64,000 bases of DNA from positions 1-64,000 of the forward strand of contig CAZSWP010000012.1 of NCBI GenBank assembly GCA_964610875.1. Reading direction: 5' to 3'. The DNA comes from an uncultured archaeon. GTDB lineage: Archaea; Asgardarchaeota; Thorarchaeia; Thorarchaeales; Thorarchaeaceae. The notes beneath the pieces are model-generated. The model was not told the DNA's origin. It made no database searches and saw only the letters and a program-made list of their open reading frames with translations. The position numbers were made by a program, and so were the translations under genes. Below, in pieces: positions 2,324 to 36,397 of the stretch (positions are counted from its first letter, which is position 1; every line of letters begins with the position of its first letter).

Positions 2324-2881
2324 ATGCAGGACATATTTGCAGAAATCGTTGCATGGTTTTCACAGACATTTGCAGTAGCAGCTTCACCGCCATGGGCTGC
2401 TCCCCTTATCATGACGGTTTCTGTGCTCGTGTCCTCTCTGAGCAACCTTGCAATGAGACGGTTTGCTGATATGAGGCGGCTGAAAAGAATTCAAGCAGAA
2501 GTAAAACAATATCAGGAATTACAAAAACAAGCTCAGAAGACACAAAATGAAAAACTTCTGAGAAAGGTCAAACGAAGGAAAGCGTACATTGATCGTATCC
2601 AACGTGAAATGATGACCACTCGTTGTAAACCTTCTCTGATCTTCCTGGTCCCCTTCATGCTGATGTTTTCTATTTTGCGTGCATTTTATGCACCTGATGG
2701 TGTCGATGTTGTGGTTGCAATTCTTCCTTTCAATGCTGACAAGATTTTGCCATTTCTTGTTGGAATGATTGGAGTGTCAACGCCTGCAGGGTTTGGAATG
2801 ACATTCATAGGTTTCTATTTCCTTGCAGGACTTGGTCTGAGTAGCATTCTTCAGAGAATAATGGGGACTCAGATAACATAG
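2324..2881 (+). CDS. EMC3/TMCO1/Get1-family (DUF106) membrane insertase
   Basis: TM1, cytosolic coiled coil, two further TM segments; conserved position between adk and rpl34e. Confidence 0.88.
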   Translation: MQDIFAEIVAWFSQTFAVAASPPWAAPLIMTVSVLVSSLSNLAMRRFADMRRLKRIQAEVKQYQELQKQAQKTQNEKLLRKVKRRKAYIDRIQREMMTTRCKPSLIFLVPFMLMFSILRAFYAPDGVDVVVAILPFNADKILPFLVGMIGVSTPAGFGMTFIGFYFLAGLGLSSILQRIMGTQIT

Positions 2882-2951: not shown

Positions 2952-3230
2952 TTGGTGATTTTAATGCCAAGGCCTGGAATGTTGACAAGAGGACGAGTAA
3001 ATCGTAGAGTGAAGACCCCGGGTGGTCGTTTGACTCTACATAGAAGGAAAAACTACACATCACGAGGCACTTGTGCACTCACTGGTAAGCGGATGCAGCT
3101 TCCTAAGAAAGCAAAACTGGGTGAAAGTCAAAATGCCAGTGGTTCCGCAAAGCGGTCCAATAGACCTTATGGCGGATACGCACGAGCAAAAGCTGTACGT
3201 AGAGGTATTATTAGAGCCATAAGAGAATAG
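2952..3230 (+). CDS. rpl34e: 50S ribosomal protein L34e
   Basis: VKTPGG and RPYGG motifs, basic; most Zn-finger Cys absent. Confidence 0.92.
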   Translation: MVILMPRPGMLTRGRVNRRVKTPGGRLTLHRRKNYTSRGTCALTGKRMQLPKKAKLGESQNASGSAKRSNRPYGGYARAKAVRRGIIRAIRE

Positions 3231-31823: not shown

Positions 31824-32621
31824 ATGGAGCCATGGCAGATTATTGTGGCACTAATTCAGGGACTAGTTGAATGGTTGCCTATCTCCAGTGAAGGGCAAGC
31901 TGTATTATTCGTTTACAACTTTGGAGATGTTTCTGTGGAATCACTCATCACTTTGGTTGCTTGGCTTCATCTAGGTACCGCTCTTGCAGTTATCGTTCGT
32001 TATCCCAATACAATATTCGAAATAATCTCCCTCAAAGATCGTAATCTATTCAGACAGTTGCTCCTAGCCACAGGTGCAACAGCTATTACTGCGTTACCCA
32101 TGTACTTTCTTCTCAGAGAAGGACTGTTATTTTTCAATGGTGAGATTGTAAATGTTTTAGTTGGTGTTTTCCTACTTGTAACTGCAATTCTCCTATATCT
32201 TCCAACCCGAAATGTTACAGTTCTTGAAATACCTGATGAAGTTGTAGAACCTGATGACAAAATATCCACAATAACAGGTCTGGCTCAAGGATTCTCAATA
32301 CTACCTGGATTAAGCAGGTCTGGAACCACTATCTCTGTACTTCTAATGCAAAAAGTGAACAAGGAAACTGCTTTACGCTTCAGTTTTCTAATGAGTGTGC
32401 CAGCAGTTCTAGGTATTTTCACAATTGAACTCTTACTGGGAGGAGCTGTCTTACCAACAATTGCACCGATTGATCTACTACTAATGGAAATTATTGTCTT
32501 CTTTACAGGGCTCCTTTCAATGGAGATTCTTCTGCGAATTGCGCAAAGAATCAGTTTTTGGAAGTTCTGCCTAGTCCTTGGTGTGGTTGCAATCTTGTTT
32601 GGAACGCCTGCCTTTCTATGA
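31824..32621 (+). CDS. uppP: Undecaprenyl/polyprenyl-diphosphate phosphatase (BacA family)
   Basis: QGLVEWLPISSEG, HLGT, QG..ILPGLSRSG.TI, FSFLMSVP. Confidence 0.93.
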   Translation: MEPWQIIVALIQGLVEWLPISSEGQAVLFVYNFGDVSVESLITLVAWLHLGTALAVIVRYPNTIFEIISLKDRNLFRQLLLATGATAITALPMYFLLREGLLFFNGEIVNVLVGVFLLVTAILLYLPTRNVTVLEIPDEVVEPDDKISTITGLAQGFSILPGLSRSGTTISVLLMQKVNKETALRFSFLMSVPAVLGIFTIELLLGGAVLPTIAPIDLLLMEIIVFFTGLLSMEILLRIAQRISFWKFCLVLGVVAILFGTPAFL

Positions 32622-33338
32622 TTCACGCTTTTGAAACATGATGGCAATAGGTGCGTTGGCCTTCCTCCACTCTGCCAGTTTTCCCTCATAATTGAGAGGT
32701 ATAGGATGTCTACCGTGATTTCCAATAACCATGAATAAAGTGTCTGGTCTTGCCTGTTTATAGAGAACTTTTATCCAGTTATCGGTCCGCTTCACTATTT
32801 TTTCAAGAAGTTTCTTTGGAGGTGTCCTGTGTCCATACTGAGCATATAGACTCTCAAAATCTAGAAAATGGATGTAGAGTAGCTGACATTTGAAAACATG
32901 TTTTGTAGACTCGATATATGTTGACATATCATCACGGACACTTATTGTATACGATCTATCAAAATCAAATGTTTCCCGGTCATCTTCTCGACAGACTGCA
33001 CGAACCACTAAGTTCGAGTCTTGAGCATACTCTAGGACATTGAATCCTCCCAAGGGGTTTCCTGAGATTATGTTTTTAATTATTGATGCTGCATATGGAT
33101 CTTCACTTTCAATAACTGCAAGGACTTCCATGTTTTTGATAAGTCCCTCAGGTTTGTAGACAACAGCCTCGAAGAGACCAAAATTATCAATCATTACGAC
33201 AACAATGGATTTTGGACTGAACCTACTAGCAATTTCAGTATTTACAGAAGAGAGACTGATTGGAAGTTCAATCCCTAACATTTTCAATATGGTCGCAGGA
33301 TATTCTCCTGCACTTGTTCGTACTTGAGGGAATGACAT
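32616..33338 (-). CDS. Alkaline-phosphatase-superfamily-like protein with degenerate active site
   Basis: VVVMIDNFG and VIGNHG resemble the DG and DHG motifs of the superfamily. Confidence 0.6.
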   Translation of the reverse strand: MSFPQVRTSAGEYPATILKMLGIELPISLSSVNTEIASRFSPKSIVVVMIDNFGLFEAVVYKPEGLIKNMEVLAVIESEDPYAASIIKNIISGNPLGGFNVLEYAQDSNLVVRAVCREDDRETFDFDRSYTISVRDDMSTYIESTKHVFKCQLLYIHFLDFESLYAQYGHRTPPKKLLEKIVKRTDNWIKVLYKQARPDTLFMVIGNHGRHPIPLNYEGKLAEWRKANAPIAIMFQKRES

Positions 33339-33491: not shown

Positions 33492-34460
33492 TTGATACCA
33501 ATGCCTACACTACAAGAGATTATCAATAACGATTCAATAAAATTCATACTTAGCGGTGGAAAGGGTGGTGTTGGAAAGACCAGTTGTGCTGGTGCGATGG
33601 CCGTACTATCTGCTAGAAGAGGTCTACGAACCCTCGTGCTTTCAACCGATCCCGCACACAGTCTAAGTGATAGTTTCCATCAAGACCTCTCAGGGGGAGA
33701 ACCAGTTCCCGTTGAGGGAGTTGAACATCTCTGGGGAATGGAGCTTGATACCGAAAAGGGCATGCAAGAATTCCAGGATACAATTGGTGGTGGAGGAATG
33801 GGTCCAGAGATGGAGATGGCCTCTTCTCTGATTGGTGACATGAGTGGTATGTCCCCTCCAGGTTCTGATGAAGCCATGGCATTTGGCAAAATACTGGAGT
33901 TCATTGAGGACTCATCCTATGACAGAGTAATCTTTGATACTGCTCCAACAGGGCATACTCTCAAACTCCTTGAACTACCAGATTTATTGGACAGCTGGCT
34001 AGGAAAAGTACTGACCATCAGACAGCGACTGAGCTCGATGATGTCTGGTCTTCGTGGTATGTTCGGTGGTGGTGGTGATGAGGAAACGCCATGGGAGATG
34101 TTACAGGCTACAAAGGAGAAGATCAAAGCAGCCCGTATCGAACTCTCTGACCCCAATATGACCCAGTTTGTTGTGGTAATGATACCTGAAGCTATGGCGG
34201 TCTTTGAAACCCAGCGTTTGTTTGGGAGTCTAAATGCTTGGAATATTCCTGCTTCTAATATCATTGTGAATCAATTAGTACCAAAGAATACGGATTGTAG
34301 ATTCTGTTCGAGTAGACGTGAAATGCAACAGAGGAACCTAGTTGATATAAAGGACCTTTACCAAGATTTGAATATAACCGAAGTGCCTCTGTTTGAGAAG
34401 GAAATAAGAGGTGTGGATGGTCTCATAGATCTTGGAAAGGTGCTTATTAGCGAGGCATGA
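33492..34460 (+). CDS. Get3/TRC40/ArsA-family ATPase (single domain, Get3-like)
   Basis: GGKGGVGKT, STDPAHSLSD, PG.DE, FDTAPTGHTL, Met-rich helical insert, C-terminal CRFC. Confidence 0.93.
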   Translation: MIPMPTLQEIINNDSIKFILSGGKGGVGKTSCAGAMAVLSARRGLRTLVLSTDPAHSLSDSFHQDLSGGEPVPVEGVEHLWGMELDTEKGMQEFQDTIGGGGMGPEMEMASSLIGDMSGMSPPGSDEAMAFGKILEFIEDSSYDRVIFDTAPTGHTLKLLELPDLLDSWLGKVLTIRQRLSSMMSGLRGMFGGGGDEETPWEMLQATKEKIKAARIELSDPNMTQFVVVMIPEAMAVFETQRLFGSLNAWNIPASNIIVNQLVPKNTDCRFCSSRREMQQRNLVDIKDLYQDLNITEVPLFEKEIRGVDGLIDLGKVLISEA

Positions 34461-34564
34461 TCAAAATGCGGTATAAAACTAAACGGAAAATTTACTCTGC
34501 GATATTTGTGCTGCTCTTCATAGCCTCAATTCTGGCTGCTGCATATCTAGTGTTCAAGGGATAG
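34457..34564 (+). CDS. 35-aa tail-anchored-type microprotein (below the ORF-track cutoff)
   Basis: ATGA overlap with the Get3-like stop; MIKMRYKTKRKIYSAIFVLLFIASILAAAYLVFKG*. Confidence 0.6.
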   Translation: MIKMRYKTKRKIYSAIFVLLFIASILAAAYLVFKG

Positions 34565-34568
34565 GAAA

Positions 34569-34712
34569 TTATACTCCCTTTACACGTTTAACGACTGGTG
34601 GACGAATCTTGTAGAGGATTCTACCTCCACAGTAGGGACATTTGACTCCTGGGAGTTGTTCTAATCCCTCTGGAGTTACTTCACGTTTGCAGGAATGACA
34701 TACATAGACCAT
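34569..34712 (-). CDS. rpoP: DNA-directed RNA polymerase subunit P (Rpo12)
   Basis: YVCHSC...KCPYCGGRILYKIRPPVVKRVK. Confidence 0.93.
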   Translation of the reverse strand: MVYVCHSCKREVTPEGLEQLPGVKCPYCGGRILYKIRPPVVKRVKGV

Positions 34713-34804
34713 GGAGATAACCTCGAATAGTAATCGGTGTTCTTTCACCACTACTATCTGGAATCAAAGGTTGCCAATATGAGGTTTTTCATTGGGCACT
34801 TTGA

Positions 34805-36397
34805 TTATTCCTTATTCTGAATGACTTCTCCTTCTACCAATCCTTCACTCAGAACTTTGAATATTCTAACACAAAGAAGGGTCCCTGGACTAAAACCTCC
34901 ACGAACTGTCATCAGAGGCCCTTCATTCAATGGATACACCATCGTAAAACCATGATGTGTTCCAGATGGCTCTGCAGCAATCCCCCTCATTATCTTACCC
35001 ACGTACTCTGTCTTTCTTGACCTATTGATTCGTGCGGCTTCCTTCTTGAGTCGCATTCCCAGCGGGTCCTTGGCACTTGATGGACGTGCTTCTGCAAAAG
35101 CTGACTCTGGTAGTGGGCGGAAACCATAAAGAATTATTCTCTCGGCTCCGGCTTCACTCACTTCTCGCATGAGTCTTATGGATTCTTCAACGGTCTTGGG
35201 CGTCTCTCCTGGTAGTCCATATATAAAGTAGATATGAGGCCTTAATCCATATTTAGATGATATTTTGACTGCTCTTACAATATCCTCAGGGGTGCCACAT
35301 TTTCCTATATCTCGCATATGTCTTGCCGAACCTGTTTCTAATCCAATATTTGGAGATGTCATTCCTGCGAACTCTGAAAGAATACGTGCAGTATCATCAT
35401 TCAATAAACAAGCTTTGACATTCTCTATTGAGAGATGGGCCTCTCCGCTTTGCATTTGTTTAATCTCAGATATCTTCTCAAGAAGCAAGCGTATTGCATT
35501 CACGTTGGGTTTTGGACTGCAAGGCGTTCTCACAGGATAACCACCTCGCATATAGTCAAAGAAACCTGGTGCTTCCAGTACAATTCGACGTACTCCTAAA
35601 TCTAAGAGTTCCTCTACTTCTTCGATTATGGTGTTCTGCATTTTGCTACGCGGAGGTCCCCAAACTGCAGGGACGCTGCAGAATCCACAACCTGGTGGGA
35701 TATCTTCTGGACATGAAACTCTGTCCTCAGATTTATCAGAATCGCAATTACCACAGTCACTACACATGCGGCCATCTGGTAATTCTAGGCGGGTTCTATT
35801 GAAATTTGAACAACCCCTCAATACCTCAACATAGACCTTACTAGCCTGATAGTAGGGATAATCTATGATTCTGGAAGTCGAAGGGTGATATTCCTTGGAT
35901 AGTTCTTCAGGACTCAGAAAGGGTCGTGGGTCATTTACTTTGACTGCTTTGCCCTTCCGATAAGCGATACCTAAAACATGTTCCAGTTGCACATCATTCT
36001 CGAGAAATCCAATATTAATCAACTCTGAAAGTGTTGCTTCGCCCTCTCCTCTTACAATGAGGTCTGGATTTATTTCTCTCAATAATCTATCAGCATCTGT
36101 AGCAATCGGTCCTCCTATCATAATTCGTCCTTGTTTTCTACGTTTTTTCCAACTATCAACTAATCTCTTTGTAGCCGGAAAGTCCATGCTCATCGCACTT
36201 ATTGCGAGATGGTCAAAGGAACGGAGTTTGAATTGTCCTGCTAGAACTACCTCTGCTCTTACTATTCTACATGGAATTCGATATTTTTCAAAGACTCCTG
36301 CAACACTTCTAGGACCACACCCAATGGAATCACGTGAGCTGGTACGTTGTCCTCTTCCAGCACTCAGCGCATCAATGATCAGTACTTTTCCGGGCAT
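34805..36397 (-). CDS. B12-binding-domain radical SAM protein with C-terminal TRAM-like region
   Basis: IGGP, GEGE, EVLRGC..(Cys-rich insert)..GCGFCSVP, GLETGS, YFIYGLPGET. Confidence 0.9.
   Translation of the reverse strand: MPGKVLIIDALSAGRGQRTSSRDSIGCGPRSVAGVFEKYRIPCRIVRAEVVLAGQFKLRSFDHLAISAMSMDFPATKRLVDSWKKRRKQGRIMIGGPIATDADRLLREINPDLIVRGEGEATLSELINIGFLENDVQLEHVLGIAYRKGKAVKVNDPRPFLSPEELSKEYHPSTSRIIDYPYYQASKVYVEVLRGCSNFNRTRLELPDGRMCSDCGNCDSDKSEDRVSCPEDIPPGCGFCSVPAVWGPPRSKMQNTIIEEVEELLDLGVRRIVLEAPGFFDYMRGGYPVRTPCSPKPNVNAIRLLLEKISEIKQMQSGEAHLSIENVKACLLNDDTARILSEFAGMTSPNIGLETGSARHMRDIGKCGTPEDIVRAVKISSKYGLRPHIYFIYGLPGETPKTVEESIRLMREVSEAGAERIILYGFRPLPESAFAEARPSSAKDPLGMRLKKEAARINRSRKTEYVGKIMRGIAAEPSGTHHGFTMVYPLNEGPLMTVRGGFSPGTLLCVRIFKVLSEGLVEGEVIQNKE

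Follow-up and report, generated by a model that had tools for sequence, protein, structure and literature searches.

The window analyzed here is a stretch of 64,000 nucleotides from the genome (95% complete) of an uncultured archaeon of the family Thorarchaeaceae, and its DNA occurs in only two sequencing runs, both of DNA and both from one microbial-mat metagenome study. Its forward strand carries get3 (33501..34460), which encodes a single-domain Get3/TRC40-type ATPase of 319 aa counted from ATG 33501. On the same strand follows a microprotein gene (34466..34564) of 32 codons plus stop, the product of which consists of the head M-R-Y-K-T-K-R-K, a 22-residue transmembrane (TM) helix and the tail K-G. 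The get3 frame ends with TGA 34458-34460; its earliest possible start is TTG 33492, and ATG 33501 is the start that agrees with the N-termini of relatives. Upstream of get3, and divergent from it, lies a gene whose 240-aa product shows weak phosphodiesterase-like similarity (32616..33338, reverse strand; PF01663 0.005, below the cut-off). Downstream, a convergent gene for a 60-aa zinc-ribbon protein (RpoP/Rpb12-like; 34569..34751, reverse strand; PF03604 25.2 bits, cut-off 24) ends 4 nt past the microprotein stop. Thus, bounded by a divergent gene on one side and a convergent gene on the other, get3 and the microprotein gene constitute a self-contained two-gene unit. A gene for a 530-aa protein with B12-binding and radical SAM domains is found just downstream (34805-36397, reverse strand).

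Judging from its sequence, the ATPase belongs with Get3 rather than with ArsA. It matches PF02374 (1.2e-85, 287.9 bits, cut-off 24.3) over residues 17-319 of 322 and the TIGR00345 model (GET3_arsA_TRC40) with 286.9 bits against a cut-off of 135; its score with the ArsA equivalog model TIGR04291, 123 bits, falls below the cut-off of 650. The nearest solved structures are those of the archaeal Get3 proteins 3zq6 (264 bits) and 3ug6 (242 bits), with solved eukaryotic Get3/TRC40 proteins at 175-210 bits and E. coli ArsA (1f48) at 127 bits. Invariant in an alignment of 43 sequences are the deviant Walker A P-loop GKGGVGKT (G20-T27), the switch motifs STDPAHS (S48-S54) and DTAPTGH (D146-H152), and the CxxC motif, here CRFC (C266/C269, residues 266-269 counted from ATG 33501). 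Of the methionines in the helical insert regions, 8 fall within residues 76-135 and 4 within residues 161-215, and this Met-rich part can be aligned with the insert of solved Get3 proteins. The single-domain architecture, Met-rich helical insert and C-terminal CRFC motif proposed in the initial annotation were all borne out by these matches and counts, and a grouping with arsenite-transport ArsA, which it had raised as the outcome that would speak against a Get3-like ATPase, is contradicted by the TIGR00345 score and by the rank of 3zq6 and 3ug6 as the best structural matches.

The only cysteines of the ATPase are C29, C266 and C269, and hence an ArsA-type metalloid site is lacking. No ars genes occur among the get3 neighbors, and weak ArsB-family matches lie on other contigs only. 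An identity as an ArsA arsenite pump is ruled out by the single domain (as opposed to a tandem of ~580 aa), the low TIGR04291 score and the lack of an ars context. A second Get3 copy was not found in the genome, the window get3 being the single copy found. From its motifs, the ATPase is predicted to dimerize through CxxC and is a putative carrier of tail-anchored proteins.

The microprotein gene had been described initially as a 35-aa ORF with an ATG overlapping the get3 TGA. Such an ORF indeed exists, opened by the alternative in-frame ATG 34457 (ATGA), but the start in use is probably a different one. The conserved product in 27 relatives is 32 aa long and begins with M-R-Y, which matches the second in-frame ATG, 34466, located 5 nt past the get3 stop. 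A Shine-Dalgarno (SD)-like GAGG (34452..34455, forward strand) lies within the last get3 codons, 10 nt before ATG 34466, and an SD-like core, mostly GGAGG or AGGAG, is found 5-11 nt before the conserved start in 26 of the 28 orthologous loci. The 35-aa form is specific to the window, and a literal ATGA-type overlap with the get3 stop is present in 7 of the 27 relatives. In 26 of 28 loci, the start lies between -3 and +13 nt relative to the last base of the get3 stop; the offsets in the other two are 0 and +44 nt. Across these loci, the microprotein occupies all three reading frames relative to get3 (17, 9 and 2 of 28), indicating separate, closely coupled initiation and excluding a read-through or frameshift fusion. 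The tight coupling to get3 claimed at the outset was confirmed: in each of the 30 loci retrieved for the best matches, the microprotein gene directly adjoins the get3 3' end.

The microprotein gene is real and its conservation goes far beyond chance. A screen of get3 loci in 30 related genomes revealed a TM-containing ORF of 31-37 aa directly behind get3 in all 25 loci of the same family (hereafter f1; other families are denoted likewise), in the genome of the same order and in one f12 genome, with the consensus M-R-Y-x-x-K-R-K, 22 hydrophobic residues and [FY]-[KR]-[PG]. In a profile search, 81 of the 85 other f1 genomes yielded one full-length, stop-free copy. The four misses are assembly gaps: two of these genomes lack any Get3 match, one has only a distant paralog and in the fourth the contig terminates at the get3 stop. 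Linkage to get3 is kept in every assembled get3 3' flank, that is, in more than 80 genomes from 16 genera, plus f2 and f12. Pooled over 24 orthologs, pN/pS is 0.41 in the microprotein frame, with pS already at 0.79, near saturation. In the other two forward frames, pN/pS is 1.08 and 1.25, and stop codons interrupt 21 and 7 of the 24 copies, respectively. Most copies are also closed in the reverse frames, and variability is highest at the third codon position. Lack of conservation, which had been named as evidence against the gene, is thus contradicted by both its presence in 81 of 85 family genomes and the pN/pS of 0.41.

The ORF is very short, escaped the gene finders in the window genome and begins a few bases from the get3 stop, features that would also suit a chance ORF or a C-terminal membrane anchor of Get3 produced by read-through or frameshifting. 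However, purifying selection is confined to the microprotein frame, length and sequence are fixed in more than 80 genomes, the gene has its own start codon and SD, and no single recoding event could join frames that stand in all three relations to get3; the read-through or frameshift fusion is ruled out on the latter ground. Moreover, a search of 1.84 billion protein representatives yielded only 12 microprotein clusters, all 32-36 aa long, and neither a longer nor a fused form. That there is no separate gene here is therefore exceedingly improbable.

The family is virtually absent from annotation resources. Neither Pfam (at E<=0.01) nor NCBIfam contains a family matching the microprotein, and the exact window peptide is absent from 15 billion predicted proteins. 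When the peptides of three relatives were looked up, one was named "hypothetical protein" and two had no name. A look-alike search of a protein atlas gave a best score of 0.77, below the useful level, to unnamed clusters of ~31-35 aa. The literature search returned nothing on a get3-coupled microprotein, nor on Thor Get3 beyond a transporter census. At one locus of an f1 genome, L150 (G353:C292), two copies were observed, at 3003-3128 and 2385-2522, the diverged second microprotein-like ORF lying ~600 nt downstream of the get3-coupled copy; it looks like a local duplication.

The sequence of the peptide agrees with the initially described basic N-terminus, 22-residue hydrophobic helix and 2-residue tail (KG). 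The hydrophobic stretch spans residues 9-30 of 32, with 2 residues beyond it; averaged over 19 residues, its Kyte-Doolittle hydropathy reaches 2.76. Of the basic residues, five stand before the helix and one behind it. By the positive-inside rule, this distribution suggests an N-in, C-out orientation, and the microprotein falls into the tail-anchored topological class. A 32-residue product is released before its helix emerges from the ribosome. Since the chain is still wholly in the ribosome tunnel at termination, insertion can only be post-translational.

Conservation within the peptide is unevenly distributed. Among 38 distinct sequences, F18 and S21 never vary, L17, A25 and L28 hardly do, and R2 and K8 are retained in 36 and 37, respectively. 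Within the helix, conservation has its strongest periodicity at 100-110 degrees, defining a face composed of S11-F14-L17/F18-S21-A24/A25-L28 that includes a small-xxx-small pair. This pattern is the one that a defined helix-helix contact would produce and exceeds the needs of a generic anchor; with R2 and K8, the face bears the signature of a specific protein contact.

To assess the reach of the family, we searched a widened microprotein profile against 400 Asgard genomes representing ~33 sampled families, accepting as real only matches to short ORFs. Real matches were obtained in f1 (81/85), f2 (1/1), f12 (11/19), f21 (6/6) and f22 (2/3). The remaining Asgard families had no real match, including 0 of 135 genomes in the largest one, and the low-scoring rest fell inside long ORFs. 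The microprotein gene is linked to get3 in three families (f1, f2 and f12) and unlinked in two (f21 and f22). We found no comparable ORF after get3 in loci of other named Asgard groups, other archaea or bacteria. The get3-microprotein pair is thus a lineage feature rather than a general property of Asgard Get3: the expected presence of the microprotein behind Asgard Get3 homologs holds in the Thor-type family, but the peptide is restricted to 5 of ~33 families.

In f12, where Get3 is ~50% identical, the microprotein lies directly behind get3 in the three loci fetched. At the f12 locus L149, the zinc-ribbon gene likewise comes after the microprotein gene, and the gene upstream of get3 (L149 448-1161) appears by eye to encode a homolog of the 240-aa protein and is co-directional there. 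The flanking genes in f12 are thus similar to those in the window, but both are co-directional with get3, from which it follows that an old neighborhood was rearranged around an intact get3-microprotein pair.

The short peptides of f21 and f22 are probable homologs of the microprotein, to judge from 33-37-bit matches to the 32-position profile (27 bits in the weakest f21 genome and 26 bits in the weakest f22 genome), and are also conserved inside those families. The f21 peptides are 27-28 aa long, start with TTG, have their own SD-like sites and keep the L-L-F-L-G-S/T...A-A core; the f22 peptide has a longer basic head and measures 46 aa from its ATG. These get3-unlinked relatives are located at L141:2620-2703, L142:2618-2698, L143:1370-1450 and L146:2550-2687. 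In a complete f21 genome, 873 kb separate the peptide gene from get3. Get3 is present in 7 of the 8 genomes of these unlinked lineages that have a microprotein match, the eighth assembly consisting of ~540 contigs. Considering these copies and the many Get3-bearing families without the peptide, the linkage is needed by neither the peptide nor Get3.

This distribution bears on whether the job of the peptide could be unrelated to Get3, for example, as a subunit or stabilizer of a membrane complex, with the adjacency resulting from tight packing only. Indeed, an SD within the get3 coding sequence makes separation costly, and such packing could by itself hold the two genes together; the solitary f21 and f22 copies, which are far from get3 and share no neighbor genes among themselves, fit this explanation. 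Yet, the adjacency has been kept in more than 80 genomes from 16 genera, plus f2 and f12, while neighbors were inverted or inserted, and the topology would still demand a post-translational insertion route. Accordingly, we regard an unrelated job as quite unlikely.

A second small membrane protein was found to be linked to get3. In f12, the operon order is a protein with three TM helices (3-TM protein), get3 and the microprotein. The 3-TM protein is 107-120 aa long, with an acidic and probably disordered N-tail followed by three TM helices, and belongs to no Pfam family; its loci include L149:1166-1525 (f12), L159:1489-1809 (f7), G149:C1:1907044-1907343, G157:C34:3192-3494 and G329:C138:56486-56812. 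A profile of this protein has matches in f12 (19/19), f7 (4/5), f21 (5/6) and f22 (1/3), as well as in f23, f24 and f31. The gene is directly upstream of get3 in f12, f7, f22 and f31, convergent with and adjacent to it in f21, and present but unlinked to get3 in f23 and f24. Neither single-protein nor profile searches recovered it from f1 (0/85), the window genome or f2, and in Thor-type genomes the microprotein is the only get3-linked small membrane protein detected. The AlphaFold model of the 3-TM protein (pLDDT 59, pTM 0.28) was too poor for a fold search. Its layout, an N-tail plus three TM helices, may recall Get2/CAML or EMC6. We also compared the loop before its third TM helix (R-M-R-Y-S) with the microprotein head (M-R-Y-S/A); the resemblance has no statistical support (tblastn E ~5). 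Thus, small membrane proteins are recurrent companions of Asgard get3 loci, and the get3-linked 3-TM protein in Asgard families other than Thor is new here.

The initial annotation further pointed to a Get1/EMC3-family insertase in the window. The gene is real, encoding a membrane protein of the DUF106/EMC3-TMCO1 family (Oxa1 superfamily; 2324..2881, forward strand; PF01956 5.4e-21), but it adds nothing specific to the case, being 31 kb from get3 in a separate operon, near-ubiquitous (the family was found in 380 of 400 Asgard genomes) and of a copy number that does not track the microprotein. A second DUF106 paralog of the genome lies on contig C38 (G000:C38:33497-33961; L157:1480-2034), and two DUF106/EMC3-TMCO1 paralogs are usual in genomes of the family. 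A copy number tracking the microprotein was considered and rejected: Thor families usually have 2 copies, f12, f21 and f22 have 1, and microprotein-less families have 1-3. In six relatives belonging to six genera, a DUF106 gene is 24-38 kb from get3 on the same contig, so that gene order is conserved on a large scale. The role of DUF106 proteins as the Get1 equivalent has been inferred (PMC5868721).

These observations frame the possibility that the peptide is a membrane-side cofactor of Get3, namely, a minimal tether or receptor subunit, in which the head (R2, K6-K8) would bind Get3 at the surface of the membrane, as the basic N-terminal motif of Get2/CAML does, and the helix face would pack against DUF106, the archaeal relative of Get1/EMC3. 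The coupling to get3 remains strict across three families despite ~50% Get3 divergence and local rearrangement. R2 and K8 are more constant than a positive-inside bias alone would require, and the conserved face of the helix points to a partner within the membrane. Furthermore, a protein of Get2-like layout adjoins get3 in five other families and forms a 3TM-get3-microprotein operon in f12, and neither PMC5868721 nor PMC6593721 mentions an archaeal Get3 receptor, Get2-like or otherwise. Against this stand the mere ~8 cytosolic residues of the peptide, which leave no room for a flexible linker as in Get2, and the lack of detectable similarity to GET2 or any Pfam family; in addition, most Asgard lineages with Get3 and DUF106 do without the peptide, its f21 and f22 genes stand apart from get3, and the number of DUF106 copies does not follow it. 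We therefore consider the tether assignment possible, if doubtful.

Our preferred reading, to which we assign a probability of roughly 0.5, is that get3 and the 32-codon gene form a unit in which Get3 handles the peptide, which then makes contact with a specific membrane partner. The microprotein would be made from the get3 mRNA, using its own ribosome-binding site in the end of get3, and would thus appear beside freshly made Get3. The single Get3 of the genome would shield the peptide and deliver it to the membrane in the N-in, C-out orientation, where it would expose ~9 basic cytosolic residues, span the bilayer with one very hydrophobic helix and leave 2 residues outside. Once inserted, it would contact the partner via the helix face (S11, F14, L17, F18, S21, A24, A25 and L28) together with R2 and K8, and this partner may itself belong to the same insertion pathway. 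Both the handling by Get3 and the existence of a membrane partner are what we infer from the features described above.

Because the microprotein must insert post-translationally, a Get3 client is the default reading of it. Get3-type ATPases shield hydrophobic tail-anchor helices. Very small hydrophobic peptides can also insert spontaneously or via YidC-type insertases, without a targeting factor, and such insertion can be held against the client reading. Binding of tail-anchored proteins by Get3 homologs from archaea is on record (PMC6593721, which cites Sherrill 2011 and Suloway 2012). When a Get3 dimer (alignment of 43 rows) was co-folded with the microprotein (27 rows) in a run without controls, the score was 0.00, a result that speaks neither way as to binding. 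Beyond client status, a role in the pathway itself is favored by a coupling that is both deep and strict, by the conservation of residues in the head and by the 3-TM protein as a parallel case. It is disfavored by the unlinked f21 and f22 copies, by the peptide being absent in most Asgard lineages, by its very short cytosolic part and by a DUF106 copy number that does not follow it.

Among known organisms, Asgard archaea are the nearest kin of eukaryotes, and the origin of the GET pathway is thus naturally sought in their get3 loci. In the most far-reaching interpretation, the microprotein would be the membrane end of a primitive Asgard GET pathway, where the 3-TM protein would join it in other families; its head would dock Get3, its face would pack against DUF106, and the whole would be a forerunner or analog of the Get1/Get2 receptor. 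We consider this scenario unlikely. The peptide and the 3-TM protein bear on how archaeal Get3 meets the membrane, each being a named candidate that could serve as a model client or act as a membrane partner. Our analysis adds a conserved, unannotated membrane peptide that is hard-wired to get3 in Thor-type archaea and is small enough for synthesis. It also illustrates that standard gene calling misses conserved genes of ~30 codons.

Compared with known systems, the window ATPase has the same SIMIBI-class single domain as archaeal Get3 (3ZQ6 of M. thermautotrophicus and 3UG6 of M. jannaschii) and eukaryotic Get3/TRC40, and shares with them the deviant Walker A, switches I and II, the Met-rich helical insert and the CxxC dimer motif. 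To our knowledge, a co-transcribed microprotein has been described for none of these homologs, and, unlike them, the window get3 carries the ribosome-binding site of a downstream peptide gene in its last codons. The peptide resembles Get3 clients, such as Sec61-beta, SecE and SNAREs, in its cytosolic N-terminus, single very hydrophobic C-terminal TM helix, tail of few residues and obligatory post-translational insertion. However, known clients possess a functional cytosolic domain and are not encoded together with the chaperone, whereas the peptide has ~9 cytosolic residues and lies in the operon of the chaperone.

Eukaryotic Get3 delivers tail-anchored helices to Get1/Get2, a receptor whose Get2/CAML subunit tethers Get3 by means of a basic motif at its N-terminus. 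The peptide parallels Get2/CAML in having a conserved basic cluster in the cytosolic N-terminus and a genetic association with Get3, although its binding to Get3 is only putative. Moreover, the three TM helices and long flexible tether of Get2 contrast with the one helix and the linker-free head of 8-9 residues in the peptide; searched against Pfam at E<=0.01, the peptide matched no family, GET2 included, and does not qualify as a Get2/CAML member. In size (~30-40 aa), in the possession of a single TM helix with a conserved face and in often being unannotated, the peptide is comparable to bacterial single-TM microproteins binding to membrane machines, such as KdpF, CydX and AcrZ, whose genes likewise lie in an operon, that of the machine in question. 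Those genes, however, stand beside the genes of integral-membrane partners, whereas the Thor-type peptide is encoded beside a soluble targeting ATPase.
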